From: Corallococcus sp. CA047B
GTDB lineage: Bacteria > Myxococcota > Myxococcia > Myxococcales > Myxococcaceae
Assembly: GCF_003612065.1 (NCBI RefSeq)
Contig: NZ_RAWD01000050.1
Span: forward strand, 1 to 36,692
Direction: 5' to 3'
DNA: 36,692 bases
Below the pieces are notes generated by a model. It was not told the origin of the DNA, did no database searches, and was given only the letters and a program-made list of their open reading frames with translations. This document shows positions 11,904 to 36,035 of the stretch, one piece after another. Position 1 is the stretch's first letter, and the number at the start of each line of letters is the position of its first letter. Both the position numbers and the translations under genes were made by a program.

Positions 11904-13499
11904 CTACGCGTGGGCCGCGTTGCGCTGCGCAGGCTCTTCCCCGCGCAGCTCCGCGACCTCCGCGCGCAAGAGCCAGTCCGACGGGAAGTCGGAGGAGGCC
12001 CGGGCGATCTGCTCCAGCCGGTCCGCCGCGAGCTGCCCCGTCTCACGGAGGCGGCGCACCTCCGTGTAGAGGGCCGCCAGGGACGGGTGCAGCGCCTTCG
12101 CCTTGCGCTCGCGCGCCTGCGCCTCGCCGTCGCCCGCGGTGAAGGCGTTCATCTCCCCGAACCAGCGGTCCCACGCGCCCGGATCCGCGGGGCCACCCGC
12201 CACGGACGGCAGCCGCTCGGTCAGGTACACGCGCGCCATCGACGGCAGCTCCAGCGGCTTGCCCGCGAGCGTCCCGCTCAGGGCAATCACCTCGCCGCCA
12301 TCCACCGCGAAGCCCTCCAGCACCAGCCCGCTGTCCAGCGCCAGTCGGAAGTTCCCGCGCTCCGGCAGGGTGCCCGTTCCAAAGGCCACCAGCGCCGCGC
12401 CGCTGAACGGCTTGTCCAGCGCCTGGCCATCGCGCGACGTGACGATGGGGCCTTCCAGCCGAGCCATCGCGGTGGACAGACCCGGGGCCACCTCCTGCGC
12501 GGCCGGCAGCAGCTCCACCACCTTGCCCGTCACCTCGCGGCCGTCCGAGAGCACCAGGTGGTTCACCGTGCGCGCTCGCAGCGCCTCGTCCAGGCCCAGG
12601 TCCCCGCCGCGCTTCCACGCGAGCGTGGCCTCGAACTCCGCCAGCACCTCGAACAGGTGCTCGAAGTCGCGCGCCACGAAGAGCTGCGGCTGCATGCGGG
12701 TGATGTCGTAGTCCGTGTCCGCGCACGCCACGCCCAGCGGCAGCTTCCGCACCGCGGACGTCAGGCAGTGCTTCGCCTCGCCGATGCTCGACAGCAGGCC
12801 CGCGCCGTAGATGCGCGGGCGCTCCAGGTCGCCCACGAGCCCGTACTCCGCCGTCCACCAGTACAGGCGGCTCGCGCGGGTGCTCTCGCTGATGTAGCGG
12901 TGGCTCTCGTTGGCGGCCTCCAGGCGGGCCTGCGCGTGCGCGATCTCCGCGTCGCTCGCCGTGGGGTCCTCCTTCACCACGGACAGGTTGCGGATGGCCT
13001 CGAAGACGGCTTGGTCCTCCACGCTCGCGATGGCCTTGAACCCCACCAGCCCCACGGCCTTGAGGTACTCCGCGTAGCGGCGGTTCGCGATGATGGGCGC
13101 GTGCCCCGCGCTCTCATGGACGATGTCCGGCGCGGGCGTGTACTGGATGTGCTCGTGCGTGCGGATGTCCGCCGCGATGGCCAGCACCCCCAGCGCCTGC
13201 AGCTCCGTGAAGACCGCCGGAGGGATGAAGCCGCGCACCGCCACGCAGGACCAGCCCAGCTTCGACAGCTTCTCGTTCATCTCGTCCAGGCTGGGGATGG
13301 CCTCCGCGCCAATGCCGGTGGCCTCCAGACCCTCCAGGTAGACGGGATGCGCCTTGTCGCGCAGATGCCCCCGGAGCTGCCCCAGGATGTGACGCCACAC
13401 CGCCTGGTCGCGGGGCGTGTAGGCCGCGTAGTCCTGCGACACCACGTAGCGACGCAGGTGGGCGGGCAGGCGGGCGATCGTCCGTTCCGTGGGGGTCAT
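11904..13499 (-). CDS. biopterin-dependent aromatic amino acid hydroxylase (phenylalanine-4-hydroxylase-like), long form with a ~230-aa C-terminal extension
   Basis: HEHIQYTPAPDIVHESAGHAPII has two His at the positions of the iron-ligand histidines (PDICHELLGHVPL in PAH). YGAGLLSSIGEAKH matches YGAGLLSSFGE (iron-ligand Glu). Start at 13499 with GAAGGAG 8 nt upstream. The 876-aa ORF in the track is a spurious upstream extension. Confidence 0.8.
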   Translation of the reverse strand: MTPTERTIARLPAHLRRYVVSQDYAAYTPRDQAVWRHILGQLRGHLRDKAHPVYLEGLEATGIGAEAIPSLDEMNEKLSKLGWSCVAVRGFIPPAVFTELQALGVLAIAADIRTHEHIQYTPAPDIVHESAGHAPIIANRRYAEYLKAVGLVGFKAIASVEDQAVFEAIRNLSVVKEDPTASDAEIAHAQARLEAANESHRYISESTRASRLYWWTAEYGLVGDLERPRIYGAGLLSSIGEAKHCLTSAVRKLPLGVACADTDYDITRMQPQLFVARDFEHLFEVLAEFEATLAWKRGGDLGLDEALRARTVNHLVLSDGREVTGKVVELLPAAQEVAPGLSTAMARLEGPIVTSRDGQALDKPFSGAALVAFGTGTLPERGNFRLALDSGLVLEGFAVDGGEVIALSGTLAGKPLELPSMARVYLTERLPSVAGGPADPGAWDRWFGEMNAFTAGDGEAQARERKAKALHPSLAALYTEVRRLRETGQLAADRLEQIARASSDFPSDWLLRAEVAELRGEEPAQRNAAHA

Positions 13500-13591
13500 C
13501 TCGGAGGCTCCTTCAAGAGAAACAGGACACCTGGAAGATACCCATGTCAGCGGAGGACGGAAATCCGGCAGAAAACGACGTCTTCGTCGGA

Positions 13592-14512
13592 TTATCGCCG
13601 TTTCTGGAGCCGACGTCGCAGGCCCTCCAATACGGCCCGGGCCCCGGGACTGAGGCCGCCGGAGGGCCACAGGGCGACGACTTCGACCACCTGGGGTTCC
13701 GCCTCGCGCAGGGGCCAGACGTGGACGTCGGCGGGGAACGGCTGGGTGGGCCGTACGTCGGGGGCGATGGCGCAGGCGCGGTAGGCGCGCAGCAATTCGT
13801 AGAGGTGGAGGAAGCTCTCCACGCGGCCCACTTCGTCCACCTTGACCCCCTGGGCGGCGAAGCGCGCGCTGTTGGCGCCGCCGTACGGGTCGTCTCTCAA
13901 CCAGTCCACGAAACGTTGACCCTGCAGGTCCTTCACATCCAGCGCGCGCCGGGAGGCCTGTTCGCGCACCAGCGCGGAGTCCGGGCCGGCGAGCACCACG
14001 AAGGACATGCGCAGCAGGGACTCTGAATCCACGCCGTCGTGGGGTGGCAGGGGGGTGAAGTCCAGCACCAGGTCCTGCTGCCGCGTCTGCACCTGCCGCA
14101 CCAGCTCGTGCGAGCCGCCGAAGCCCACCACCAGCTTGAGGTCGGTGGCGGCCGCGTCCTGCGCGATGCCGCCCAACAGCGACATGGACAGGGTGGGGTT
14201 GAGCCCCAGGCGCAGGGTGGGCTCCACGCGCGCCAGGTCCATGAGCCGCTTCATGTCCAACTGGTGCAGCGGCGTCTGGGTGCCCGCGTAGAGGCGCTCG
14301 CCGCGCGCGGACAGTTGCAGCCTGCGCCCGGGGCCGCGCTCCAGCAGGACCGCGCCGTCCGCCAGGGCCTCCTCCAGCGCTCGGATGTGCTCGCTCACCA
14401 CGGAGCGGGCGACGCCCAGGTGTTCGGCGGCGGCGTCGATGCTGCCCGCCTCCACGGCGGCGGTGAAGGACTCGAGCCAGACCAGGTGTCGCAGCAGCTT
14501 GCGCGGGGGCAT
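13592..14512 (-). CDS. LysR-family transcriptional regulator
   Basis: N-terminal HTH LRHLVWLESFTAAVEAGSIDAAAEHLGVARSVVSEHIRALEEAL followed by a LysR substrate-binding-like domain, 306 aa. The ORF-track N-terminal extension to 14755 is Pro/Ser-rich junk. Confidence 0.8.
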   Translation of the reverse strand: MPPRKLLRHLVWLESFTAAVEAGSIDAAAEHLGVARSVVSEHIRALEEALADGAVLLERGPGRRLQLSARGERLYAGTQTPLHQLDMKRLMDLARVEPTLRLGLNPTLSMSLLGGIAQDAAATDLKLVVGFGGSHELVRQVQTRQQDLVLDFTPLPPHDGVDSESLLRMSFVVLAGPDSALVREQASRRALDVKDLQGQRFVDWLRDDPYGGANSARFAAQGVKVDEVGRVESFLHLYELLRAYRACAIAPDVRPTQPFPADVHVWPLREAEPQVVEVVALWPSGGLSPGARAVLEGLRRRLQKRR

Positions 14513-14561
14513 GAGGGCCTTGTTCCTGGCGCACCCATGCGCCCCGGGGTGGGTGCGACGG

Positions 14562-15383
14562 TCAGATGAAGTAGTCGGGGAACAGCTCCGCGCCGGGCAC
14601 GGACTGGTACTTGTCGAAGTTCGTGACGCCCACGCCGCGCAGCACGTCCTCGTCGATGCAGAAGTTGCCGGTGAAGGAGCGGCTGGGCTTGGTGAGGATG
14701 GCGTGGGCCGCGTCGGCCATGATCTCCGGCGAGCGGCTGCCCTTGATGGTCTCATCGCCGCCCAGGAGGTTCTGCACGGCGGCGGTGGCGATGACGGTGC
14801 GCGGCCAGAGGGCGTTGACGGCGATGCCCTCGTCCTTGAACTCCTCCGCCATGCCCAGCACGCACATGCTCATGCCGAACTTCGCCATGGTGTAGGCGAC
14901 GTGGGGGCCGAACCAGCGCGCCTCCATGTTGAGCGGCGGCGAGTTGTTGAGGATGTGCGGATTGGAGGACTTCTTGAGGTACGGCAGGCACGCCTGCGAG
15001 CACGCGAAGGTGCCGCGCGTGTTGATGCCGTGCATCAGGTCGAAGCGCTTGAGCGGCGTCTCCAGTGTACCGGTGAGGCTGATGGCGCTGGCGTTGTTCA
15101 CCAGGATGTCGATGCCGCCAAAGGTCTCCACCGCCTTGGCCACGGCTGCGTGGATCTGCGCCTCGTCGCGGATGTCCACCACGCAGGGCAGCGCCTTGCC
15201 GCCCGCCGCTTCAATCTCCTTCGCCGCGGTGTAGATGGTGCCGGGCAGCTTGGGGTGCGGGTCGGTCGTCTTCGCCGCGATGATGATGTTGGCGCCGTCC
15301 CGGGCCGCGCGCAGCGCGATGGCCAGGCCGATGCCGCGGCTGGCGCCGGTGATGAAGAGGGTCTTGCCTTTGAGGGTGGACAT
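14562..15383 (-). CDS. SDR-family NAD(P)-dependent oxidoreductase
   Basis: TGASRGIGLAIA Rossmann motif and the catalytic YTMAK (YxxxK). Start at 15383 with GAGGA 9 nt upstream. Confidence 0.8.
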   Translation of the reverse strand: MSTLKGKTLFITGASRGIGLAIALRAARDGANIIIAAKTTDPHPKLPGTIYTAAKEIEAAGGKALPCVVDIRDEAQIHAAVAKAVETFGGIDILVNNASAISLTGTLETPLKRFDLMHGINTRGTFACSQACLPYLKKSSNPHILNNSPPLNMEARWFGPHVAYTMAKFGMSMCVLGMAEEFKDEGIAVNALWPRTVIATAAVQNLLGGDETIKGSRSPEIMADAAHAILTKPSRSFTGNFCIDEDVLRGVGVTNFDKYQSVPGAELFPDYFI

Positions 15384-15479: not shown

Positions 15480-17828
15480 TCAGGGGGTGTAGAGGAGGGC
15501 CGCGTTGACGCTCGCCCCCGCGTCCCGGTCGTACCCGCCAATGAAGAGCACCTTGCCGTTGGGCAGCAGGGTGGTGCCCATCGAATAGCGGTTCGACGCC
15601 ATGCTGATGGAGAAGGACGTCGTCCCGGTGGCCGGATCGAAGAGCTCCGTCGTCAGGCCCACCAGGGAGTTGCCTCCCGCCAGCAGGAGCTTCCCCGAGG
15701 CCAACTGGACGATGGAGGACGTCGGGCGGTCGTAGCTGAAGTTCCCCGCCGTCGTCTGGACGTTGAGCACGGGGTCATACAGCGCGATCAGGGTGGTGCT
15801 CCCGGCCAGCAGGAGCTTGCCCGACGGCTGCAGGAAGGCGTGCGTGAAGTTGCGGTTGATGAGCCCCGTGGCGTTGCTCCAGGTGTTGGTGGCCGGATCA
15901 TAGAACTCCGCCGGGGAGTTGCCGCCCAAGACGAGGATCTTGCCCGACGGCAGCAACACCGCCAGGTGGCCCGTATGGACGAAGGTCGAGGCCGCCACCG
16001 GCACGAACGTCATCGTCGCGGGGTCGAACAGCTCCGGGATGCGATTGCTCGCGGTGTCGCCCGACGTGTTTCCGCCGATGATGAGCACCTTGCCGTTGGG
16101 CAGCAGCGTCGACGTGTGGCTCCCGCGCGCGAACGCCATGGTCGGCCCGGCCGTCCAGGTGTTGGTGGCGGGATCGTAGAGCTCCACGTTGCGCAGCGGG
16201 GTGGTGCTTGGGTAGAGCCCGAAGCCTCCCGTGACCAGGAGCTTTCCGGAGGGCAGCAGGGTCACCGCCGGCGAGTAGTGCGCCGTCCCCATGGAGGTGG
16301 CCGGGGCCCAGGTCGCCGTGGCGGGATCATAGATTTCGCCGGACACCAGGACGGGGTTCGACACGGTCACTCCCCCGAAGACGAAGATCTTGCCGGAGGG
16401 CAGGGGGATGACGCTCGCGCCGAAGCGACGGACCGTCATGGCGGCCGTGGCATCCCACCGCGCGACGGTGCTCTCCGGAGGCGGGGTGCAGGTCGGCACC
16501 CCCACCACGGCGACGCTGAAGCTCGTGGACGCGGAGAAGCCCAACGCGTTGGTGACGGTGGCGCTGATGGTGGGGCTGGGGCCATCGGGGATGCAGGCCG
16601 GGGCCTTCCAGGCGATCTCGCTGGAGGTGAACCCGGAGGTGGCCGTGCCCAGCGTGCCGTGGCTCGACGCCCAGGCGAAGGTGAGCGCGCTGCCATTGCC
16701 GTCCTCCGCGAGGACGCGGAACGTCACGGTGCCATTGCCCGCCACGGAGAGCGCGCTCTGGTTCGACAGGACGATGCGCGGGGGCACGTTGGCGACGGGA
16801 CCCGTGCCGACGCAGATGCGCAGGGTGCCCTGCGTCTGGCCGCCGTTCGGATCCTTCACGGTGACGGTGAGCGAGCAGTTGCCGCAGGACTCGCCGGCCG
16901 GCACCGCGCTCGGGGTGAAGGACGCCGTGCTGGCGGTGGCGTCGGTCCACGTTCCGGCGCAGGACGCCGTCCACTGGTAGGTCAGCGCATCGCCGTCCGG
17001 ATCCGTCACGTCCGCGACCACGGTGGTGCTCTGGCCCACCGGCAGCGGGGACTGCGACGCGGTGACGCGGTTCACGGCGGGGGAGACGTTGAAGGTCACG
17101 GACACCTGGGCCACGCCCGAGTCCGGTCCGCCGTCCGTCGAGATGACCGTGATGTTGATGCGGATGACCGCGGCGGCGCCGCGCGAGTCGGTGACCGTCA
17201 GCGTCAGCGTGACGACGCCCGGCGTCGCGGGGGCCGTCCAGGTCGTCGAGGCGAGCGCGGCCGAGCCGAAGGTGCCGCCCGTCGCCGTCCACGCATAGGT
17301 GAATGTGTCCGAGGTGTCCGGGTCATGCGCGGTGGCCTGGAGGGACAGCGTGCCCCCGGGCAGCACGGTGCTGGCGGACGCCACCAGCGAGTCGATGCAG
17401 GGCGCGGAGTTGTCGAAGGGCCCGGGCACATTCAGGGCCTGGAGCGTGATGGCGACGACCGACGTGGTGCCCGCCGTGATGGTGACATCCGTTGCCGCGC
17501 CGCGGTAGCGCAGCGAGCCGTCCGCCGCGAAGGCCTCCGCGGTGAAGGTTCGCTGGGTGCCCGCGGGGACCTGGTACAGCGTGCCACTCCAGCTGTCCGC
17601 GCTCTTCGTGAGCACGGCCGTGGACGAGGGCACGCCCGTGGCCGTCAGCGTCACGGTCACCCGGGTGACCTCATCGCCCGCGAGCGCCTGGGGCACCGCG
17701 CTGATGAACCGCACGTCTCCGGTTTCGGGCACGGGCTCGGCGGTGTCAGGGCTGCAAGCCATGACAACCATTGCAAAGCTGGTTACCATGTAAAGCATAA
17801 CGCTAGACAGAGGGGTCTGCCGACGCAT
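15480..17828 (-). CDS. lipoprotein with N-terminal Ig-like (BIG/PKD-type) domains and a C-terminal Kelch-repeat beta-propeller
   Basis: MRRQTPLSSVMLYMVTSFAMVVMAC signal plus lipobox, with AGGAAGG RBS. About four Ig-like modules (…TYAWTATGGTF…, …TYQWTASCAGTWTD…, FAWASSHGTLG). Then six or more Kelch motifs (YDPATATW, YDPATNTW, FDPATMTF, YDPATNTW, FDPATGT; G-G pairs). Confidence 0.8.
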   Translation of the reverse strand: MRRQTPLSSVMLYMVTSFAMVVMACSPDTAEPVPETGDVRFISAVPQALAGDEVTRVTVTLTATGVPSSTAVLTKSADSWSGTLYQVPAGTQRTFTAEAFAADGSLRYRGAATDVTITAGTTSVVAITLQALNVPGPFDNSAPCIDSLVASASTVLPGGTLSLQATAHDPDTSDTFTYAWTATGGTFGSAALASTTWTAPATPGVVTLTLTVTDSRGAAAVIRINITVISTDGGPDSGVAQVSVTFNVSPAVNRVTASQSPLPVGQSTTVVADVTDPDGDALTYQWTASCAGTWTDATASTASFTPSAVPAGESCGNCSLTVTVKDPNGGQTQGTLRICVGTGPVANVPPRIVLSNQSALSVAGNGTVTFRVLAEDGNGSALTFAWASSHGTLGTATSGFTSSEIAWKAPACIPDGPSPTISATVTNALGFSASTSFSVAVVGVPTCTPPPESTVARWDATAAMTVRRFGASVIPLPSGKIFVFGGVTVSNPVLVSGEIYDPATATWAPATSMGTAHYSPAVTLLPSGKLLVTGGFGLYPSTTPLRNVELYDPATNTWTAGPTMAFARGSHTSTLLPNGKVLIIGGNTSGDTASNRIPELFDPATMTFVPVAASTFVHTGHLAVLLPSGKILVLGGNSPAEFYDPATNTWSNATGLINRNFTHAFLQPSGKLLLAGSTTLIALYDPVLNVQTTAGNFSYDRPTSSIVQLASGKLLLAGGNSLVGLTTELFDPATGTTSFSISMASNRYSMGTTLLPNGKVLFIGGYDRDAGASVNAALLYTP

Positions 17829-17979
17829 CGCACCTTCCTGGTGGGGGAGAGTGTTTCGATCTACCAGATTGAATCAGGAAACACAGACTGTGATTGCATT
17901 GGAGGCGGGTGTCTGTTCAAACCCTTCGGGTCGGTGGTTACCCTGGACGTCGGTTGGGAGGGCGCTACGCTCCGGAGCC

Positions 17980-20664
17980 ATGAACCGACTCCTCCTGTCG
18001 CTTGTTGTCGCGGTGACCGTCCGCTGTGCCCACGCGCCGGAGGCCGCGCCCCCGGCCGCCGCGCCTGCCACCCTCGCATGGCCGGAGCCCCGGCCTCCCG
18101 TGCTGCGGCTGCCGGACACGGTGCGGCCCCTGCGCTACGCATTGGACCTGAAGCTGCTGCCCGCGGAGGCCACCTATCCGGGCAGCGTGAGCATCGACGT
18201 GGAGGTGCGCGAGCCGGTGCGTCAGGTGTGGCTGCATGGCCAGGACCTGGAAGTGACGCGCGCCAGGGTGACGGTGGGCGGCCGCACCTTCGACGCGAAG
18301 CCCGTCTCCGAAAGTGAAGGACGGCTGGGATTGCTGTTGCCGGAGGAGCTGCCCGTGGGCACGGCGACGCTCACCCTGGACTTCACCGGCAAGGTGGACC
18401 GCGAGCGCAGCCAGGGTGTCTATGGACAGGCGGAGGGCGGTGAGTCGTATCTCTACACGTTCTTCGAGCCCATCGACGCGCGGCGTGCCTTCCCGTGCTT
18501 CGACGAGCCGGCCTTGAAGGTGCCCTGGAAGCTGCGCCTGACGGTGAAGGCGGGGCACGTGGCCCTGGCCAACCATCCCGTCGTCTCGCGCGAGCCCGTG
18601 GCGGACGGGCTGGAGCGCGTCACGTTCGCGGAGAGCCGGCCCATGCCCAGCTACCTGGTGGCGTTCATCGTGGGGCCGTTCGACGTGGTGGAGGCGGGCG
18701 CGGTGGGGCGCGCGAGCGTGCCCCTGCGCTTCATCGTGCCGAAGGGGCGGGGCGGGGAGACGCGCTACGCCGCGAGCGTCACGCCTCGCATCGTGAAGGG
18801 CCTGGAGGACTTCTTCGACCAGACGTATCCCTACGAGAAGCTGGATGTGGCGGTGGTGCCCCGGTACTGGGGCACCATGGAGCACCCGGGCCTCGTGGCG
18901 CTCGGGCAGCCGTTGACGCTGATTCCTCCCGGGGAGGAGACGCTGAACCGGCGCCGTTCCTATGCGGTCATCGCCAACCACGAATTGGGGCACTACTGGT
19001 TCAGCGCCGTCGTCACCAATGCCTGGTGGGATGACATCTGGTTGAACGAGTCGTTCACGGCGTGGCTGGATCGGCAGACGGTGGACCGGCTGGAGCCGTC
19101 CTGGAGCTTCCAGCAGGAGCGGGCCATGTCCGCGACGGAGTCGGCGTTGGCTTCGGATGCGCTGGAGGCCGCGCTGCCGGTGCGCAAGCCGGTGGCGAGC
19201 AACGACGACATCGTGGGTTCGTTCGACAATGGGACGACGTATGACAAGGGCTCGTCCGTCATCGCCATGTTCGAGGCGTGGCTGGGGGCGGAGCGCTTCC
19301 GCGACGTGATGCGAAGCTATGTCCGCAAGCACGCGTGGGGCGCCGTGACGACGGAGGACTTCCTGGCGGAGGTGTCCCAGGCGGCGGGGCCGGAGGTGGC
19401 GAGCTCCTTCAAGGGCTTCATCGAGAAGGGCGGGGCGCCACGAGTGTCCGCCCAGGTGACGTGCCCGGCGGGGGGCGCGCCGACGGTGAAGCTGTCGCAG
19501 GAGCGGTATCTGCCCGCCGGCTCCCGGGCGAGCACGCAGCAGGAATGGCAGGTGCCAGTGTGTCTGCGCGCGGGGACGGGGACGCGGTCATCCCGGGTGT
19601 GCTCGATGTTGCAGGGGCCTTCGATGGAGGTGGCGCTGCCGACGAAGCAGTGCCCGGCGTGGGTCCTGCTCAACGCGGGCGGCACGGGGTACTACCGCGG
19701 TGGCTACTCGCGTGAGCAGCTCGCGAAGCTGCTGGCGACCCCGGCTTCGGCGTTCACGACGGGAGAGCAGGTGGCCCTCTGGGCGGACGTGGACGCGGCG
19801 GTGGGGCGCGGAGACCTGCCGCTCGGGGAGGCGCTGGAGGCCGTGCCTGCCACGGCGCGCTCGCCGGAGCGGCTGGTGGTGGAGAGCGGGGCCGCGCTGC
19901 TCTGGCAGGTGCGGCTGGACCGGCTGTCGGTGGAGGAGCGGAAGCGATTTCGCGCCTGGGTGGCGTCGCTCTATGCGCCGCGTGCACGGGCGCTGGGGTG
20001 GGTGTCGAGGCCCGGCGACGGTGACGACGTGAAGCAGTCGCGTTCGCTGTTCCTGCGGCTGGCGGGCGGGCTGGGTGAGGATCCGGCGCTGCTGAAGGAA
20101 GCCACGCCGTTGGTGCGTGCGTGGCTCGCGGACCGGAAGTCCGTGGACCCGGAGGCGCTGGCCAGCGCGCTGCCCCGGGCGGCGTCCCACGGCGATGCCT
20201 CGCTGTTCAATGCATTGTTGGAGGCCGCGAAGAAGGAGCAGGACCGCAACGAGCGCGTCCGGCTGCTGTCGGCGCTGAGCTATTTCCGGCAGCCGGAGCT
20301 GGAGCGACGGGCACTGGGATTGGTGGTGGGGTCGGACTTCGACACGCGGGATGCCCTGGCCATCCTGAAGATGTCGCTGAACATGCCGGAGACGCAGCCT
20401 CTGGCCTGGGAGTTCTACCGCCAGCAGTTCGACGTGCTCTCGCAGCGACTGCGCTCGGATGAGCAGGGTGGACTCATCAACCAGGTGGGCAATCTCTGTG
20501 ATGCGACCCAGCTCGCGGAAGCGGAGGCCTTCCTTGCGCCCCGCGTGAAGCGCGTGGAGGGCGGGCCGCGCGCACTGGCCCGGGCGCTGGAGTCCATCCG
20601 GCTGTGCATTGAATCCGCGAAGCTGCAGCAGCAGAGCGTCCAGGACTTCCTCCGCGCTCATTAG
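17980..20664 (+). CDS. secreted M1-family aminopeptidase N-like metallopeptidase
   Basis: MNRLLLSLVVAVTVRCAHA signal peptide. GTMEH (GxMEN-type exopeptidase motif). HELGHYWF (HExxH) with the downstream WLNESF glutamate (third zinc ligand), followed by a C-terminal ERAP1_C-like helical domain. Confidence 0.85.
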   Translation: MNRLLLSLVVAVTVRCAHAPEAAPPAAAPATLAWPEPRPPVLRLPDTVRPLRYALDLKLLPAEATYPGSVSIDVEVREPVRQVWLHGQDLEVTRARVTVGGRTFDAKPVSESEGRLGLLLPEELPVGTATLTLDFTGKVDRERSQGVYGQAEGGESYLYTFFEPIDARRAFPCFDEPALKVPWKLRLTVKAGHVALANHPVVSREPVADGLERVTFAESRPMPSYLVAFIVGPFDVVEAGAVGRASVPLRFIVPKGRGGETRYAASVTPRIVKGLEDFFDQTYPYEKLDVAVVPRYWGTMEHPGLVALGQPLTLIPPGEETLNRRRSYAVIANHELGHYWFSAVVTNAWWDDIWLNESFTAWLDRQTVDRLEPSWSFQQERAMSATESALASDALEAALPVRKPVASNDDIVGSFDNGTTYDKGSSVIAMFEAWLGAERFRDVMRSYVRKHAWGAVTTEDFLAEVSQAAGPEVASSFKGFIEKGGAPRVSAQVTCPAGGAPTVKLSQERYLPAGSRASTQQEWQVPVCLRAGTGTRSSRVCSMLQGPSMEVALPTKQCPAWVLLNAGGTGYYRGGYSREQLAKLLATPASAFTTGEQVALWADVDAAVGRGDLPLGEALEAVPATARSPERLVVESGAALLWQVRLDRLSVEERKRFRAWVASLYAPRARALGWVSRPGDGDDVKQSRSLFLRLAGGLGEDPALLKEATPLVRAWLADRKSVDPEALASALPRAASHGDASLFNALLEAAKKEQDRNERVRLLSALSYFRQPELERRALGLVVGSDFDTRDALAILKMSLNMPETQPLAWEFYRQQFDVLSQRLRSDEQGGLINQVGNLCDATQLAEAEAFLAPRVKRVEGGPRALARALESIRLCIESAKLQQQSVQDFLRAH

Positions 20665-28325: not shown

Positions 28326-29558
28326 ATGAAGTCAGAAGCACGGCAGTGGTGGGGGTGGATGCTCTTCGTGGTCAGCGCCGTGATGGTGGGCTGTGGGGGC
28401 GAGCCGTCCGCCTCCGGTGCCACCCAGGAGGCACGGACGCAGCCACTGGCGTTGAGGACCGCCAGCAACCGCCTCACGCAAGGGGGCCGGATCGCCGCCG
28501 GCTGGTACCACTCCGTGGCCGTGCTGGAGGACGACACCGTGTGGGCCTGGGGCGAGAACACCTTCGGCCAGGTGGGCGACGGGACGAACGCGACCCGGAG
28601 CTCGCCGATGCAGGTGGCGGAGCTGACGGGTGTCACGCAGGTGAGCGGGGGCGCCTACCACTCGGTGGCGTTGAAGGCGGATGGCACCGTGTGGACCTGG
28701 GGCTACAACGTCTATGGCCAGCTCGGTGACAGGACGACCTTCGCGCGCAACGCGCCGGTGCAGGTGGACGGCCTCACGGAGGTCACCGCCCTCGCGGCGG
28801 GGGGCTACCACTCGGTGGCCTTGAAGGCGGACGGCACGGTGTGGACCTGGGGCTACAACGGCTACGGCCAGCTCGGGGATGGGACGGACACGGAGCGCGC
28901 CCAGGCCCTTCAGGTGCCGGACCTCACGGGAATCACTTCCATCGCCACGGGGCGCAACCACGTGCTGGCGTTGAAGGAAGACGGCACGGTGTGGATCTGG
29001 GGCGACAACACGTTTGGCCAGTTGGGTGACGGGACGACGGTGCACCGACGTTCACCGGTGGAGGTGCAGGGCCTGACGGGCGTCACGGGCGTCTTCGCTG
29101 GCATCTTCCACTCGTTCGCCGTGAGACAGGACGGCACGGTGTGGGCCTGGGGCTACAACGTCTATGGACAGCTCGGAGATGGGACGACCCTGGAGCGCCA
29201 TGCGCCCGTGCAGGTGTTGGACCTCACGGACGTCACGGCCCTGGCCGCGGGGGGCTTTCACACGCTGGCCCTGAAGCAGGACGGCACGGTGCGGGCCTGG
29301 GGCTACAACGGCTACGGCCAGCTCGGGGATGGCACCGACAATGAGCGCAGTAGGGCCGCGCTGGTGCCGGACCTCACGGGCGTCACGACCGTGGCCGCTG
29401 GCTACAATCACTCGCTCGCCGTGAATGCGGACGGCACGGTGTGGACCTGGGGCTACAACGATTACGGCCAACTGGGTGACGGGACGACCGTGCACCGACG
29501 TTCGCCGGTGGAGGTGCCTGGACTGGCGGGCGCTGAAAACGCACTCCAGGGTCCCTGA
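28326..29558 (+). CDS. RCC1-repeat (regulator of chromosome condensation-like) beta-propeller lipoprotein
   Basis: MKSEARQWWGWMLFVVSAVMVGCGG signal plus lipobox, with AAGAGG RBS. Seven consecutive ~52-aa RCC1 repeats (GxYHSVALKADGTVWTWGYNxYGQLGDGT...PVQVxGLTGV). Confidence 0.85.
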   Translation: MKSEARQWWGWMLFVVSAVMVGCGGEPSASGATQEARTQPLALRTASNRLTQGGRIAAGWYHSVAVLEDDTVWAWGENTFGQVGDGTNATRSSPMQVAELTGVTQVSGGAYHSVALKADGTVWTWGYNVYGQLGDRTTFARNAPVQVDGLTEVTALAAGGYHSVALKADGTVWTWGYNGYGQLGDGTDTERAQALQVPDLTGITSIATGRNHVLALKEDGTVWIWGDNTFGQLGDGTTVHRRSPVEVQGLTGVTGVFAGIFHSFAVRQDGTVWAWGYNVYGQLGDGTTLERHAPVQVLDLTDVTALAAGGFHTLALKQDGTVRAWGYNGYGQLGDGTDNERSRAALVPDLTGVTTVAAGYNHSLAVNADGTVWTWGYNDYGQLGDGTTVHRRSPVEVPGLAGAENALQGP

Positions 29559-31002: not shown

Positions 31003-33378
31003 ATGTCTCAAGAGCGAAGAAGCAGGCTGTTCTGTCTGGCTGTGGGCCTGATGGTCGCGCTGGCCGGGTGCGTCTCCGAGGATGCGTCCGGAAGCGCGCA
31101 GGTGGTGGTGACGCTGCCTCAGGGGCTGAGTGCCAGTGATGTGGTGCGGGTGGAGTTGACGGTGAGCGGAGAGGGGATGACCGCTCGCACCGACGCGCTG
31201 GTGAAGACGGGCGCCCAGTGGGGCGGCGTGCTGGGAAAGCTTCCTGAGGGAGAGGGGCGCACCTTCCATGGAGAGGCTTTCGACGCGCAAGGTGCGAGGC
31301 GCTACGAGGGAGAGGCGACGGGTGTCCGAATCTTCACCGGTGAGACGACGGCGGTCGCGCTGGTGCTCCAGGAAGTGAATGCCCCCGCGCCCTTTGAAAA
31401 CACGGCGCCCGTCATCACCTCGCTGGTGGCCAGTCCTTCGACGGTCGGACCGGAGGGGGTGGTGGCGCTCCAGGCGAGCGCGGAGGACTCCGACGCGGAG
31501 GACGACCTCACGTATGCATGGACAGCGAGCGCGGGCAGCTTCAGTTCGCCTGGCAGCCTCACCACGACGTGGGTGGCGCCTTCCGTGCCCGGCGCGGTGG
31601 TGTTGACGTTGACGGTGACGGACTCGAAGGGGGCCTCGGACGCCGTCAGCCTGAGCATCACGGTGACGAGTGGCACGGGGAGCGTGGCCGTCAACGTGAC
31701 GGTGAATACGTGGCCCAGGGTGACAGGGGTGACGGCGATGCCCTCATCCGTGGCGGTGGGGCAGGCCACGTCCGTGACGGCCGTGGCGGGTGATGCGGAT
31801 GGGGACAGCCTGGGCTACCAGTGGACGTCGGATTGCCAGGGCACGTGGACGGATGAGACCTCTCCGAACGCGAGCTTCACGCCGACAGCGCAGCCGCCCA
31901 TGGGAAGCGCGTGCGCCCGGTGTTCGCTGAGGGTGACGGTGGCGGACGGCAGGGGAGGGCAGACAACAGGGACGCTGGGCGTCTGCGTTGGGCCCTCGAC
32001 GCAGGCGCGCTTCCCGCCGGAGGTGGTGGAGACGTTCCAGTCCGTCGTCAGTGTTCCGGCGGAGGGGGGAACCGTCGTCTTCAGGGTGAGGGCGAAGGAC
32101 CCGCAGGACAGCGCGCTCACCTTCGCCTGGGCCACCAACGTGGGGGCGCTGGGGGCGGCCTCCAGCGGCGGTGTGACGAGCGAGGTCCTCTGGACGGCGC
32201 CTTCGTGCATCCCCGAGGGCACGACGCCCGCGGTGACGGTGTCCGTCACCAACGCGCTGGGGCTCTCCTCCAGCGCTTCCTTCGGTCTGCAAGGGGGCAC
32301 GGTCTGCACGGCACCGTCGGGGCGCGTGATTCGAATCGCGGGCTCCTACTACTCCACCATGGCGTTGAAGCAGGACGGCACCGTGTGGACCTGGGGCCGA
32401 AACAATTTTGGCAACCTTGGGGATGGGACGACCGTCAACCGCGACACGCCAGTGCAGGTGCAGGGCCTGACGGGGGTGACTGCCATTGCACCAGGCGACA
32501 CCCACATGCTCGCCCTGAAGCAGGACGGCTCCGTTTGGGCCTGGGGTGACAACGGTGCCTATGAGCTGGGGGACGGGACCACGGTCCCTCGTCCCACCGC
32601 GGGGCCGGTGCCGGGTCTGACGGACGTCGTGGCGATCGCGTCAGGTGGCTATCACTCGCTGGCCTTGAAGCAGGACGGCACCGTGTGGGCCTGGGGCTGG
32701 AATATCGACGGCTCCCTTGGAGACGGCTCGAAGGCCGCGCGCGCGGTTCCGGTCCAGGTGCTGGGGTTGACGGGCGTCGTGACGCTCCGAGCTGGCTGGC
32801 ACCACATGATGGCCGTGAAGCAGGACGGGACCGTGTGGGGCTGGGGGCTCAACTCCAGAGGTCAACTCGGGGACGGGACGACCGCTGAGCGCCTCACGCC
32901 AGTCCAGGTCCAGGGCTTGACGGATGTCGCGGCCATTGTCCCTGCCGCCTACCACACGCTGGCCTTGAAGCAGGATGGCACGGTGTGGGCCTGGGGCTAC
33001 AACGACTACGGACAACTCGGGAATGGGACGACCACCAGCAGCTCCTCGCCAGTGCAGGTGCCGGGCCTGACAGGTGTCGTCGCCCTTGCCGGGGGCCGAT
33101 ACCACTCGCTGGCCCTGAAGCAGGACGGCACCGTGTGGGCCTGGGGTTGGAACCACCGTGGCCAGTTCGGGGATGGGACGACCACCCACCGCGGCGTGCC
33201 AGGACGGGTGCCAGGCCTGACGGGGGTTTCGGCACTCACCGCGGGGCAGCAGTCCACGTTTGCCTTGAAGCAGGACGGCACCGTGTGGGCCTGGGGTGAC
33301 AATGGCTGGGGCGCCCTGGGGGCCGGACCGTCCACGGACCAGCACTCGCCCGTGCAGGTCCACGTGTTGGGGCACTGA
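31003..33378 (+). CDS. lipoprotein with N-terminal Ig-like domains (paralogous to those of the Kelch lipoprotein) and a C-terminal seven-repeat RCC1 beta-propeller
   Basis: MSQERRSRLFCLAVGLMVALAGC lipoprotein signal (ATG at 31003 with GGAG 7 nt upstream; the GTG at 30988 is an alternative start). Ig-like modules are ~60% identical to those of the 15480..17828 protein (NAPAPFENTAPVITSLVASPSTV... vs NVPGPFDNSAPCIDSLVASASTV...). Then seven RCC1 repeats (YHSLALKQDGTVWAWGxNxxGQLGDGT). Confidence 0.85.
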   Translation: MSQERRSRLFCLAVGLMVALAGCVSEDASGSAQVVVTLPQGLSASDVVRVELTVSGEGMTARTDALVKTGAQWGGVLGKLPEGEGRTFHGEAFDAQGARRYEGEATGVRIFTGETTAVALVLQEVNAPAPFENTAPVITSLVASPSTVGPEGVVALQASAEDSDAEDDLTYAWTASAGSFSSPGSLTTTWVAPSVPGAVVLTLTVTDSKGASDAVSLSITVTSGTGSVAVNVTVNTWPRVTGVTAMPSSVAVGQATSVTAVAGDADGDSLGYQWTSDCQGTWTDETSPNASFTPTAQPPMGSACARCSLRVTVADGRGGQTTGTLGVCVGPSTQARFPPEVVETFQSVVSVPAEGGTVVFRVRAKDPQDSALTFAWATNVGALGAASSGGVTSEVLWTAPSCIPEGTTPAVTVSVTNALGLSSSASFGLQGGTVCTAPSGRVIRIAGSYYSTMALKQDGTVWTWGRNNFGNLGDGTTVNRDTPVQVQGLTGVTAIAPGDTHMLALKQDGSVWAWGDNGAYELGDGTTVPRPTAGPVPGLTDVVAIASGGYHSLALKQDGTVWAWGWNIDGSLGDGSKAARAVPVQVLGLTGVVTLRAGWHHMMAVKQDGTVWGWGLNSRGQLGDGTTAERLTPVQVQGLTDVAAIVPAAYHTLALKQDGTVWAWGYNDYGQLGNGTTTSSSSPVQVPGLTGVVALAGGRYHSLALKQDGTVWAWGWNHRGQFGDGTTTHRGVPGRVPGLTGVSALTAGQQSTFALKQDGTVWAWGDNGWGALGAGPSTDQHSPVQVHVLGH

Positions 33379-33487: not shown

Positions 33488-34885
33488 TTATCGCTGGTAG
33501 CCGATTGCGATGATCTGGCCTGACGCGTCGCTGCTCACGAACAACTCGCCATTGGGGCCCACCCCCAACCCCACCGGCCGATGCGGCCAGCCGGCTGCGG
33601 TGTCGCTGGTGCCGTCGAACTCGAAGAACGGCTCGTAGCGAACCGGCAACCCGTTCTCGAACACCACCCGCGCCACCTCGTAGCCCTGGGCGGGCTGTCG
33701 ATTCCAGGAACCATGGAAGCTGACGAAGGCGTCGTTGACCACCTCGGGCGGGAAGGACGCGCCGTCGTAGAAGATGATGTCGAGCGGCGCAACGTGAGCG
33801 GGCATCGCCAACATTGGAGGCACCACATTGTTGACGTCGCGGCACCACGCATCGGAGTGGGTGCCATCATTCATGAAGCCCGGATCTGCCCACTGTGTCT
33901 TCGGGCCCATTCCCACGCCAGCCGGAAGCAGGAACTCACTGAAGCAATAGGGGTAGCCATAGAACCGCCCGGCTTCAGCGAAGAGATTCAGCTCTTCAGC
34001 GGGATTGTCGGTGTGGATGTCGCCCCCGAGGTCAGCACGGTTGAGGTTGTCTCGCCCGTTTTCCACACCCCACAGCCGGCCCTGGCTGTCGAAACGCAGG
34101 CCCGCTTCGTTCCGAAGGCCATCGGCAAACACCTCGCCGTCCGTGAAGGCCACGTTGCCCGCCTGAACCTGGGCCGCGGTGAAGCGACGAATGCGAGCGC
34201 GCGTCGAGTTGCTGTCCACGTTCGCGGCTGAACCGACGCTCACGTAGAGGCGGCCTTCGGCGTCGAAGATGATGGTCCGGGTGACATGGCCGCCCGCGGG
34301 GATGCCGGTCACCACTTCTTGCTGGCCGCTCAGCGCTGCCCTCATTCCGGTTGCGAACGGCCAACGCAGGACGCGCGTCGCGGAAGAGGCATAGAGAAAT
34401 CCGTCGTGCAGTGTGATGCCATGGTTGAGCCCGCTGACTTCGACCAGCGTCGCCCGTTCGGACGAATCCGAAACGCCGTCACCGTTCGAGTCGTAGAGCG
34501 CGGTGACTCGGCCCGCGCTGCGCTCGACCACCAGGACGTCTCCGTTCGGAGCGACGATCAACCCTCGCGGATCAGAAATGGTCGCCCAGGTCCATGCACA
34601 GTACCCCGCTGGCAACCTCGCATTGGCCACGTTGGCGCTCGCGGGCCCCAGGCAACTGTTCTTGAGAGAAGCGCCGGCATCGGAACTCCCGCCGCCGTCG
34701 GCCACACCGGCGTCACCCGTTGGGTTTTGATCTCCGGCATCGGTCCGATCCCCGGCATCCATTTCGACGCCGGCATCGCTCCCGGTAGAGGACGGGTCTG
34801 AACAACCCAGGAGGACAGAGGCACAGAGCGCTGCGACGAGCCCAAATCGCTGGTGAGACGGGAGGGAGAAGCATCTTCCAGTCAT
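33488..34885 (-). CDS. PQQ-dependent sugar dehydrogenase (soluble glucose/sorbosone dehydrogenase family) lipoprotein
   Basis: MTGRCFSLPSHQRFGLVAALCASVLLGC lipobox, then a DAG-rich linker (DAGVEMDAGDRTDAGDQNPTGDAGVADGG), then an SGDH-type six-bladed propeller (GRLYVSVGS...HGSWNR...GELFVSSDASGQI). Confidence 0.7.
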   Translation of the reverse strand: MTGRCFSLPSHQRFGLVAALCASVLLGCSDPSSTGSDAGVEMDAGDRTDAGDQNPTGDAGVADGGGSSDAGASLKNSCLGPASANVANARLPAGYCAWTWATISDPRGLIVAPNGDVLVVERSAGRVTALYDSNGDGVSDSSERATLVEVSGLNHGITLHDGFLYASSATRVLRWPFATGMRAALSGQQEVVTGIPAGGHVTRTIIFDAEGRLYVSVGSAANVDSNSTRARIRRFTAAQVQAGNVAFTDGEVFADGLRNEAGLRFDSQGRLWGVENGRDNLNRADLGGDIHTDNPAEELNLFAEAGRFYGYPYCFSEFLLPAGVGMGPKTQWADPGFMNDGTHSDAWCRDVNNVVPPMLAMPAHVAPLDIIFYDGASFPPEVVNDAFVSFHGSWNRQPAQGYEVARVVFENGLPVRYEPFFEFDGTSDTAAGWPHRPVGLGVGPNGELFVSSDASGQIIAIGYQR

Positions 34886-35321
34886 GGTGTTATTGCCTCA
34901 AAGAAAGAGGGGTTTGCTGCGGCCCGTGTTCCTTGTCGAGCGCTCCAGTGCTCCTGGCCGGGCGATCGACAGAAATACGCCCCGAGCCCGCGGGGCACCA
35001 GGGACTGAAATTGAATGGGCTTTAAAGGAGAGATTTAAAATGGGGTGCGCCCTGCGGGCATTGAAGAGGACACCGACGCGGCGATGCTTCACTTCGCACT
35101 GGGCCAGAGCGCGAGGGCAAGTACGAGATCGCGCCGCGGGTCGTTCTCGTAATCCAGGCTGGCGGTTGAGGTCTGGCAGCATACCAGCGCCCCCCTACCG
35201 TAGGTTCAACTGGTGCGAGGTGGTCGTGCCGAACAGCGCATTGCCGGGTACGCACGAGGTGTGAAGTGTGAGGCAGCGTCGCTCATTGACACTCGCGCGC
35301 TGTTGGGGCCACGCTGCGACG

Positions 35322-36035
35322 ATGACCAATACTCGTCACAGTGGCTCCCTTCGACAAGCGCTGACTGTAGTGGCTGCGTTCGCGCTCATGCTCGGCATCG
35401 GCAACGAGGCTGAGGCTCAACAAACGGGCAAGACGACCCGATACTGGGATTGTGCCAAAGGAAGCGCTTCGTGGACTGGGAAAGCCTCAGTTACCGGTCC
35501 GGTTAAAGCTTGCGCAAGCGATGGCGTCACCGTGCTCAGTCCGAATGCGCAAAGCGGTGCGAATGGTGGTACTGCCTTCATGTGTAACAACAATCAGCCA
35601 TGGGCTGTGAATGATAGTCTGGCGTATGGGGTTGCCGCAGCGTATGTGCCCGGCGGGTCAGAAGCCACTTTGAGCTGCGCCTGTTACGAATTGACATTCA
35701 CCAGCGGGTCCGCGAATGGCAAGAAGATGGTGGTTCAGGTTGTTAATACGGGAGGGCCTTCGGGTGACACCCATTTCGACCTGCTAATCCCTGGCGGGGG
35801 TGTTGGCATGTTCAATGCCTGTACGCCTCAGTGGAATGCTCCCTCCAGTGGTTGGGGTGCCCAGTACGGCGGCATCAGCAGTCGAGATCAATGCTCCATG
35901 CTGCCGTCTCAATTGCGGCCGGGCTGTTATTGGCGATTCGATTGGTTCAAGAACGCGGATAATCCTACCGTGAGCTTCAAGCCGGTCGCCTGTCCCACGG
36001 CAATCACCAATAAAACTGGCTGCATCCGCAAGTAA
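35322..36035 (+). CDS. glycoside hydrolase family 45 endo-beta-1,4-glucanase (eukaryote-like, cf. fungal EGV), secreted
   Basis: Signal peptide [32 protein letters not shown]. The mature part aligns almost residue-for-residue with Humicola EGV: TTRYWDC... vs STRYWDCC (catalytic Asp); [42 protein letters not shown] vs [50 protein letters not shown] vs [22 protein letters not shown] (second catalytic Asp); [36 protein letters not shown]. The gene is ~56% GC with many A/T-ending codons. Confidence 0.85.
   Translation: [237 protein letters not shown]

Follow-up and report, generated by a model that had tools for sequence, protein, structure and literature searches.

A common Ig-like stalk in front of different beta-propellers: two predicted Corallococcus lipoproteins and their myxobacterial relatives

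How can two genes 13 kb apart encode proteins that begin alike and end in beta-propellers of different families? The question is raised by a stretch of 36,692 nucleotides (nt) from Corallococcus sp. CA047B (contig NZ_RAWD01000050.1), referred to below as the window. One gene, at 15480..17828 on the minus strand, encodes a protein of 782 amino acids with a Kelch-type C-terminus (here, the Kelch protein), and the other, at 31003..33378 on the plus strand, encodes a protein of 791 amino acids with a C-terminus of RCC1 repeats (the RCC1 protein), identified by an exact-sequence match as WP_147446540.1. An initial annotation of the locus had interpreted the pair as modular shuffling of an immunoglobulin (Ig)-like cassette, with different propellers presented on a shared stalk. 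As described below, both genes belong to a large, lineage-specific family of predicted lipoproteins in which a fixed stalk is combined with varied heads. Genes in the window were called by third-position G+C and Pfam matches, at a G+C content of approximately 69%, for which long spurious open reading frames (ORFs) are common.

Two propellers behind one stalk

Comparison of the two translations with BLASTP gave a single 442-residue alignment, in which residues 12 to 450 of the Kelch protein match residues 9 to 438 of the RCC1 protein with 48% identity and 63% positives (E 9e-120). The identity of the N-terminal ~430 residues had initially been put at about 60%, a figure that proved too high; the homology itself stands, at a level well above the 25% taken as background. 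Past a conserved cysteine, C447 in the Kelch protein and C435 in the RCC1 protein, BLASTP found no alignment above chance, and the junctions read ...VGVPTC followed by TPPP and ...GGTVC followed by TAPS, respectively. The motifs TYAWTAS.G.F and CxxCSL.VTV, given in the initial annotation, are found in both translations, the former as TFTYAWTATGGTF in the Kelch protein and LTYAWTASAGSF in the RCC1 protein, and the latter as CGNCSLTVTV and CARCSLRVTV, in the same order.

As read from the translations, both N-termini show a basic start, a hydrophobic stretch, and the lipobox cysteine expected from the initial annotation (..VVMAC and ..ALAGC). In the Kelch protein, the signal peptide and lipobox occupy residues 1 to 25 (MRRQ..FAMVVMAC; 17754..17828, minus strand), with Cys25 as the predicted lipidated residue and a start that is conserved in orthologs; against the lipobox pattern [LVI][ASTVI][GAS]C, the methionine at position -2 is atypical. 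In the RCC1 protein, they occupy residues 1 to 23 (MSQERRSR..MVALAGC; 31003..31071, plus strand). No further copy of the stalk is present in the window, since a stalk hidden Markov model (HMM) run on the six-frame translation matched the Kelch and RCC1 ORFs only.

AlphaFold2 models were obtained for the stalk alone (79-sequence alignment; predicted local distance difference test score [pLDDT] of 82.8) and for the full Kelch protein (42 sequences; pLDDT of 84.3). Both models show four beta-sandwich domains, at residues ~36 to 128, 144 to 228, 244 to 338, and 351 to 442 of the Kelch protein, in agreement with the four Ig-like modules first proposed; only domains 2 and 3 reach Pfam cut-offs. Domain 2 (residues ~138 to 228; 17145..17417, minus strand, as for all Kelch protein coordinates below) is PKD-like, carries the TYAWTA motif, and matches K319L-like_PKD (45.6 bits against a gathering score of 27) and PKD_4 (32.6 bits) at residues ~140 to 228. 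Domain 3 (residues ~244 to 338; 16815..17099) is Big_9/cadherin-like, carries the CxxCSLxVTV motif, and matches Big_9 (51.4 bits against 23.6) and Cadherin_5 at residues ~259 to 339. Domain 1 (17445..17723) and domain 4, which ends at the junction Cys447 (residues ~351 to 447; 16488..16778), have no Pfam match at threshold and are Ig-like in the AlphaFold2 models only; domain 1 scanned alone had no Pfam or NCBIfam match. The four-domain stalk of the RCC1 protein, delimited by BLASTP, spans residues 24 to 435, up to the junction Cys435 (31072..32307, plus strand), and covers positions 3 to 425 of the stalk HMM.

The model of the Kelch protein contains three low-confidence hinges. The first, at residues 233 to 244 (pLDDT <50), is a disordered linker before domain 3, the second lies at residues 344 to 346, and the third comprises the four residues directly after Cys447 (448 to 451), with the confidently modeled propeller coming next. 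Across the stalk family, Cys290, Cys318, Cys412, and Cys447 are invariant or nearly so, and Cys315 and Cys339 are nearly so; residues 290, 315, 318, and 339 belong to domain 3 and residue 412 to domain 4. These conserved cysteines would fit disulfides formed in an oxidizing, extracytoplasmic compartment, with Cys412-Cys447 as one predicted bond and others predicted within domain 3.

No solved structure related to the stalk was found by sequence, and the Foldseek matches of its fold in the PDB were generic strings of Ig domains (S-layer proteins, cadherins, contactins, and invasin), with TM-scores of ~0.2. The possibility that the stalk is the cassette of the myxosortase-dependent M36 metallopeptidase family (NF038112) was rejected, as the NCBIfam alignment of the whole stalk scored 75 bits versus 1500 and covered model positions 1190 to 1566 only, and the stalk proteins contain neither an M36 domain nor MYXO-CTERM. 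Because domain 1 alone had no match and domain 4 alone matched NCBIfam M36 peptidase models only weakly (E ~3e-4 and 8e-4, on the order of 1e-3), the NF038112 match reflects generic PKD-like repeats.

By Pfam domain annotation, the C-termini are unrelated propellers of the Kelch and RCC1 families, as had been proposed. The Kelch head (residues 452 to 782; 15483..16475) has six blades, each with a [YF]DP motif (residues 499 to 729). Kelch_1, Kelch_2, Kelch_3, Kelch_4, and Kelch_6 all match above cut-off within residues 463 to 780, with scores of 96.4 bits for Kelch_6, 79.5 for Kelch_1, 74.6 for Kelch_2, and 70.1 for Kelch_4 against cut-offs of 20 to 25. The head is modeled with pLDDT >90, and its top Foldseek matches are the six-bladed Kelch domains of NS1-BP, KLHL, and Keap1 (E 1e-17; target-normalized TM-score up to 0.74). 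By these matches and the model, the C-terminus is a genuine six-bladed Kelch-repeat beta-propeller.

The RCC1 head (residues 436 to 791; 32308..33375, plus strand) contains seven RCC1/RCC1_2 repeats above the Pfam cut-off at residues 436 to 790, with scores of 261 bits for RCC1 in seven stretches, 206.7 bits for RCC1_2, and 310 bits for WD40_RLD (cut-off 150). Its best PDB relatives are UVR8 (E 3.5e-64) and the RCC1-like domains of HERC2, and by these matches it is a genuine RCC1-like domain. GenBank records RKH17876.1 and relatives name the RCC1-headed protein a "kelch-like protein." Kelch repeats are absent from it, and the shared stalk is apparently what carried the name across, which accounts for the annotation error. 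A stalk-less RCC1 lipoprotein is also predicted in the window (28326..29558, plus strand), with a lipobox (..VMVGC), a linker of ~45 residues, and a propeller of seven Pfam RCC1 repeats. The RCC1 fusion follows 1.4 kb downstream, past an acyltransferase_3 gene. As a recent donor of the RCC1 head the stalk-less gene is ruled out, the two propellers being only 55% identical.

The stalk family and exchange at its junction

A query consisting of just the stalk retrieved 180 relatives, and all those with a name belong to the Myxococcaceae or Archangiaceae (Corallococcus, Myxococcus, Pyxidicoccus, Hyalangium, Stigmatella, Archangium, Vitiosangium, and Cystobacter). Run against 1.84 billion proteins, a profile of nine stalks, the two from the window and seven from stalk-only proteins, matched 1314 cluster representatives at E<1e-30; it also picks up proteins with many PKD repeats by the thousand. 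In every one of the 193 retrieved proteins that contain the entire stalk, it is N-terminal, starting within the first 62 residues (median, 16), and is followed by 0 to 1139 amino acids. A lipobox-like motif is present in 123 of the 139 members with an intact N-terminus.

The tails behind the stalk fall into more than 50 BLAST-distinct clusters, the largest being Kelch (65), RCC1 (16), fibrinogen-like (10; Fibrinogen_C-like in Pfam), and LamG (5 or more; Laminin_G_3). Other heads recognized by Pfam are TARSH_C, Lcl_C, Laminin_B, ALK/LTK Gly-rich, DUF1554/endostatin-like, DUF4215, Stig1, LDL-receptor class B, NHL, tectonin, and beta-helix, and there are further heads made of TIG plus four LamG domains or of a three-fold repeat bearing a QxW-like motif. 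A few heads are enzymes (metallophosphoesterase [Metallophos], 5'-nucleotidase, and GH43-like), and many have no Pfam match at all. Heads start within a few residues of the junction Cys. The stalk also occurs as a complete protein. Of six such stalk-only proteins, five stop 0 to 4 residues past the junction Cys and one extends 14 residues beyond it; Corallococcus sp. CA047B itself also encodes a protein of this type, P0036 (locus tag D7X74_00980). The early suggestion of different propellers on a shared stalk is thus borne out, with homology that stops at one cysteine and a stalk that is found with this variety of heads and also alone.

Databases name members of the family after their heads or as "PKD domain-containing." No description of the stalk family was found in the literature searched, where MYXO-CTERM, lipoprotein sorting, and vesicle proteomes were treated in general terms; the family is apparently undescribed so far. 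In C. exiguus (JAFIMT010000001.1, 3841 to 16155), a tandem array of five family lipoprotein genes encodes domain 3 with an unknown tail, domains 3 and 4 with RCC1, the stalk only, domain 3 with RCC1, and the full stalk with RCC1, such that RCC1 heads are present in three of the five. In this array, the stalk-only gene is followed 90 nt later by the separate gene for domain 3 plus RCC1. The full-stalk RCC1 protein is 62% identical to the RCC1 protein of the window and is likely its ortholog. Counting the stalk-less lipoprotein, RCC1-type heads occur behind 0, 1, 2, or 4 stalk domains.

The two copies in the window are old. They share 58% codon-aligned nucleotide identity, and their third codon positions, with ~53% matching, are saturated for the G+C content of the window. 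A nucleotide breakpoint between the two genes was sought and rejected, as third positions are at background and protein identity fades at the junction. In a tree of stalks, the Kelch copy groups with Corallococcus and Myxococcus Kelch orthologs (93% bootstrap), and the RCC1 copy falls into a separate clade with RCC1-headed, TARSH_C-headed, and stalk-only members from Corallococcus. Kelch orthologs are 63 to 95% identical, the closest being that of C. terminator CA054A (94.6% amino-acid identity), and the gene order short-chain dehydrogenase, Kelch, M1 peptidase is kept in four other Corallococcus assemblies (C. terminator, C. carmarthensis, C. coralloides, and C. sicarius). In the metagenome-assembled genome PMG_225, the dehydrogenase side is conserved, and the contig ends before the other side. 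On this evidence, the two genes are ancient paralogs of different subfamilies. Since the copies are saturated at third positions and lie in separate clades, and since the Kelch gene is syntenic elsewhere, their 13-kb spacing records no recent local event. Of the modular shuffling first claimed within 13 kb, the shuffling at a domain boundary holds and the recent local event does not.

Within the wider family, head types are interleaved in the stalk tree; a clade of 12 with Kelch, RCC1, fibrinogen-like, and Gly-rich heads has 100% bootstrap, and a clade of fibrinogen and Kelch members has 97%. Stalk identity reaches 80% or more in 20 pairs whose heads differ, and stalks 80 to 87% identical are found with unrelated heads. 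In different-head pairs, an identity of 80 to 100% drops to background within one 20-residue window at ~440. The pattern can be followed at the DNA level in P0044 (Kelch) and P0041 (RCC1), a pair with 86%-identical stalks from Archangium-like assemblies, where the flanking genes are unrelated. The two genes are 83 to 98% identical from about -135 nt to about +1185, 72 to 77% identical from there to about +1305, and at background beyond, with the junction at codon 443.

The Kelch gene of the window and its syntenic ortholog in PMG_225 (L002, 230 to 2566) share ~95% nucleotide identity over residues 31 to 450 and 72 to 85% over residues ~455 to 700, with a synonymous divergence (dS) of 0.13 for the stalk and 0.32 for the head. 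The Kelch head is a divergent island there, as the downstream dehydrogenase retains 98% amino-acid identity, and it reflects either allelic head replacement or a chimeric assembly. Among orthologs in general, heads evolve faster than stalks (omega of 0.4 to 0.6 versus 0.1 to 0.35). The idea that the boundary of the Ig cassette coincides with a nucleotide breakpoint therefore fails for the two window genes and holds for the P0044/P0041 and PMG_225 pairs. Overall, an exchange of parts between family members by recombination at the stalk/head junction is well supported by these sequence comparisons.

Probable placement at the cell envelope and competing explanations

We consider it probable, though well short of certain, that the family consists of surface or outer-membrane lipoproteins with a common stalk and swappable, mostly ligand-binding heads, diversified by recombination at the junction. 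The Sec/lipobox signal would direct export and lipidation and, from there, placement in the outer membrane, most likely at the cell surface. The four Ig-like domains (~420 amino acids, with cysteine pairs in domains 3 and 4) would form a spacer that holds the head off the membrane, reaching up to ~15 nm if extended, as estimated from four domains of Ig size. A hinge of a few residues past the near-invariant Cys connects the stalk to an interchangeable C-terminal head, the putative source of specificity; in the window, the six-bladed Kelch and seven-bladed RCC1 heads may both act as non-catalytic binding modules. The family would diversify as members recombine at the stalk/head junction and gain or lose stalk domains, so that one genome comes to hold several members with different heads or stalk heights.

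Elsewhere, most of these head types are glycan-binding or matrix-binding modules. Heads of this kind, their fast evolution, and their exchange favor surface exposure and external targets, such as prey envelopes, polysaccharide, or matrix. Lysine at position +2 is found in 2 of the 123 members with a lipobox and alanine at position +7 in 11 of them. The former is a mark of inner-membrane lipoproteins in M. xanthus and the latter of matrix lipoproteins there (PMC3222651), and since both are rare in the family, the outer membrane would be its default location. As an indirect pointer, an RCC1-repeat protein, which may or may not belong to the stalk family, is among the proteins specific to outer-membrane vesicles of M. 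xanthus (PMC4158809). Type II secretion, a route proposed for MYXO-CTERM proteins (PMC11980579) and for lipoproteins such as pullulanase (PMC12802150), is a possible way of export to the surface.

Several points weigh against this proposal. The Kelch protein has a slightly unusual lipobox (VMAC). Of the pairs with near-identical stalks, several come from metagenome assemblies, in which chimeras are possible and coexistence in one genome is not demonstrable, and head swapping leaves the same pattern as gene conversion of the stalk. Periplasm-facing and surface-exposed outer-membrane lipoproteins look alike at the sequence level, and both the surface placement and the binding of ligands by the heads are features that we infer. 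A minority of heads are enzymes, and "binding heads" are therefore not universal. No conserved neighbor gene, transporter or partner, was seen in the five gene contexts inspected.

The main competing explanation is that these are periplasm-facing outer-membrane lipoproteins, with a stalk that reaches inward and a head that contacts peptidoglycan or periplasmic or inner-membrane proteins, in analogy to the LpoA and LpoB activators of E. coli. The lipobox and sorting features fit this arrangement equally well, the 5'-nucleotidase and metallophosphoesterase heads are typical periplasmic enzymes, and no dedicated surface-export gene lies beside the genes in the five contexts. However, most heads are of extracellular kinds that recognize glycans or matrix (fibrinogen-related, LamG, Lcl_C, laminin B, tectonin, and endostatin-like), and fast head evolution with exchange between alleles is more typical of outward-facing proteins. 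Neither observation is decisive, and we regard an inward orientation as unlikely. We consider it improbable that the two genes are ordinary paralogs in which the N-terminus is made of promiscuous PKD/Ig repeats and the C-termini have no common functional theme. The generic Ig-domain strings matched by the stalk model, the confinement of the M36-model matches to PKD-like domains, and the thousands of many-PKD proteins that match the stalk profile would all be expected in this case. Nevertheless, the stalk consists of four different domains in fixed order, with a family-specific domain 1, and it invariably follows a lipobox at the N-terminus, stops at the same Cys in every case, and also exists as a complete protein.

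A polymorphic toxin-like system, in which a conserved N-terminal region delivers variable C-terminal effectors against competitors or prey, would have a similar layout, with a conserved N-terminus, a sharp junction, and a hypervariable C-terminus; the hosts are myxobacteria, which are known to exchange lipoprotein toxins (TraA/outer-membrane-exchange literature). This explanation is very improbable, as none of the heads scanned with Pfam matches a toxin family, and the genes downstream of the window members are a short-chain dehydrogenase and a convergent glucose/sorbosone dehydrogenase-like gene rather than small immunity-like ORFs. As for an enzymatic Kelch head, a radical copper oxidase or a sialic-acid mutarotase for which the stalk is a mere tether, it is the least probable of the alternatives. 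The head does score weakly against GlxA (57 bits), Glyoxal_oxid_N (34.5 bits), and NanM/YjhT (25 and 19.6 bits), but all of these matches stay under the curated cut-offs of 800, 37.5, 416, and 256 bits, respectively, and both identities were rejected. Radical copper oxidases have seven blades and a C-terminal domain, whereas the Kelch protein has six and ends with the propeller, lacking a C-terminal oxidase domain, and its best structural matches are six-bladed, peptide-binding Kelch domains.

Returning to surface lipoproteins with swappable heads, one extension is possible, albeit doubtful, namely, that leader and stalk form a self-contained display cassette that recombination has set before many binding domains to give combinatorial surface receptors for prey, matrix, or kin. 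The cassette may include a promoter, as the block of identity in the one pair followed at the DNA level begins ~135 nt upstream of the start, and each head would work at a distance from the membrane that depends on how many stalk domains (0, 1, 2, or 4) precede it. Fibrinogen-related, tectonin, LamG, and endostatin-like heads, the last with a C-type lectin-like fold, are of kinds used in animal innate pattern recognition.

The architecture and evolution of the family are well supported, and its function is what we infer from them. If the proposal is correct, social and predatory myxobacteria possess a standard platform on which ligand-binding modules are presented at the cell envelope, and the family members would be candidate receptors for the recognition of prey or matrix, a poorly understood step of myxobacterial predation. 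Dozens of proteins in each genus, at present labeled "hypothetical," "PKD domain," or "kelch-like," could then be approached through the stalk, which would also provide a natural scaffold with a defined junction for the display of foreign domains.

Neighboring genes and known systems

Next to the Kelch gene, an M1 aminopeptidase is encoded at 17851 to 20664 (plus strand), and its longest ORF starts 22 nt from the divergent Kelch start codon. Three of four orthologs (in L003, L004, and L005) align only from residue 15, 41, or 82, and the true start of the aminopeptidase may lie further downstream. The RCC1 gene is flanked by a GH45 endoglucanase (35268 to 36035, plus strand; E 3.4e-73) and a TrAA12/glucose-sorbosone dehydrogenase-like propeller (33488 to 34885, minus strand), both predicted from sequence to be secreted carbohydrate-active proteins. 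Elsewhere in the window, a 763-amino-acid ORF at 4478 to 6769 (plus strand) matches the major vault protein in Pfam across several domains (MVP_shoulder, 1.3e-44, with Vault, Vault_2, Vault_3, and Vault_4 repeats) and is a homolog of the eukaryotic vault shell in a myxobacterium. An 876-amino-acid ORF at 11904 to 14534 (minus strand), with a biopterin-dependent aromatic amino-acid hydroxylase domain, overlaps a LysR regulator ORF at 13592 to 14755 (minus strand) and is probably over-extended, as is frequent at the G+C content of the window.

Among known systems, the SusE/SusF-type lipoproteins of Bacteroidota combine a lipid anchor with a membrane-proximal Ig-like spacer and C-terminal non-catalytic binding modules. 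The stalk family would resemble them in its N-terminal lipid anchor, Ig-like spacer, and C-terminal binding modules, and in having several paralogs per genome with different specificities. In contrast, it uses a four-domain block where SusE/SusF have one Ig-like domain, its heads are far more varied, and there is no sequence relationship; SusE/SusF sit in polysaccharide-utilization loci with partner genes, whereas the stalk-family genes stand alone. TraA, a polymorphic receptor on the myxobacterial cell surface, pairs a variable recognition domain with a conserved stalk (PMC3325183, PMC13184517, PMC11980579). The family would share with it the myxobacterial hosts, a lipid anchor, the division into stalk and recognition domain, and diversification between strains. 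However, the variable domain of TraA is N-terminal, its stalk consists of Cys-rich repeats, and its anchor is a C-terminal MYXO-CTERM processed by myxosortase, whereas the stalk family has an N-terminal lipobox and an Ig-like stalk and replaces whole head folds; the two are not related in sequence.

Polymorphic toxin families include CdiA, Rhs, and the myxobacterial SitA lipoproteins. Like the stalk family, these join one conserved N-terminal region to many alternative C-terminal domains at a sharp recombination junction, but the heads of the stalk family are propellers, lectin-like or matrix-like modules, and a few hydrolases, and neither toxin domains in the heads scanned nor immunity genes downstream of the window members were seen. 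Adhesins of the invasin/intimin type also project a terminal binding domain from the outer membrane on an Ig-like rod; they are anchored by a beta-barrel rather than by lipid, and the resemblance is generic (invasin 1cwv, TM-score of 0.15 in Foldseek), with no sequence relation. The type II-secreted surface lipoproteins PulA and InvL (PMC12802150, PMC11980579) share N-terminal lipidation, predicted here, but have no sequence similarity to the stalk family. The present family belongs to none of the first four of these systems. Ig-stalked modular surface proteins are known, and what distinguishes the family is a fixed four-domain lipoprotein stalk, a single junction, the breadth of its heads, and clear recent exchanges.

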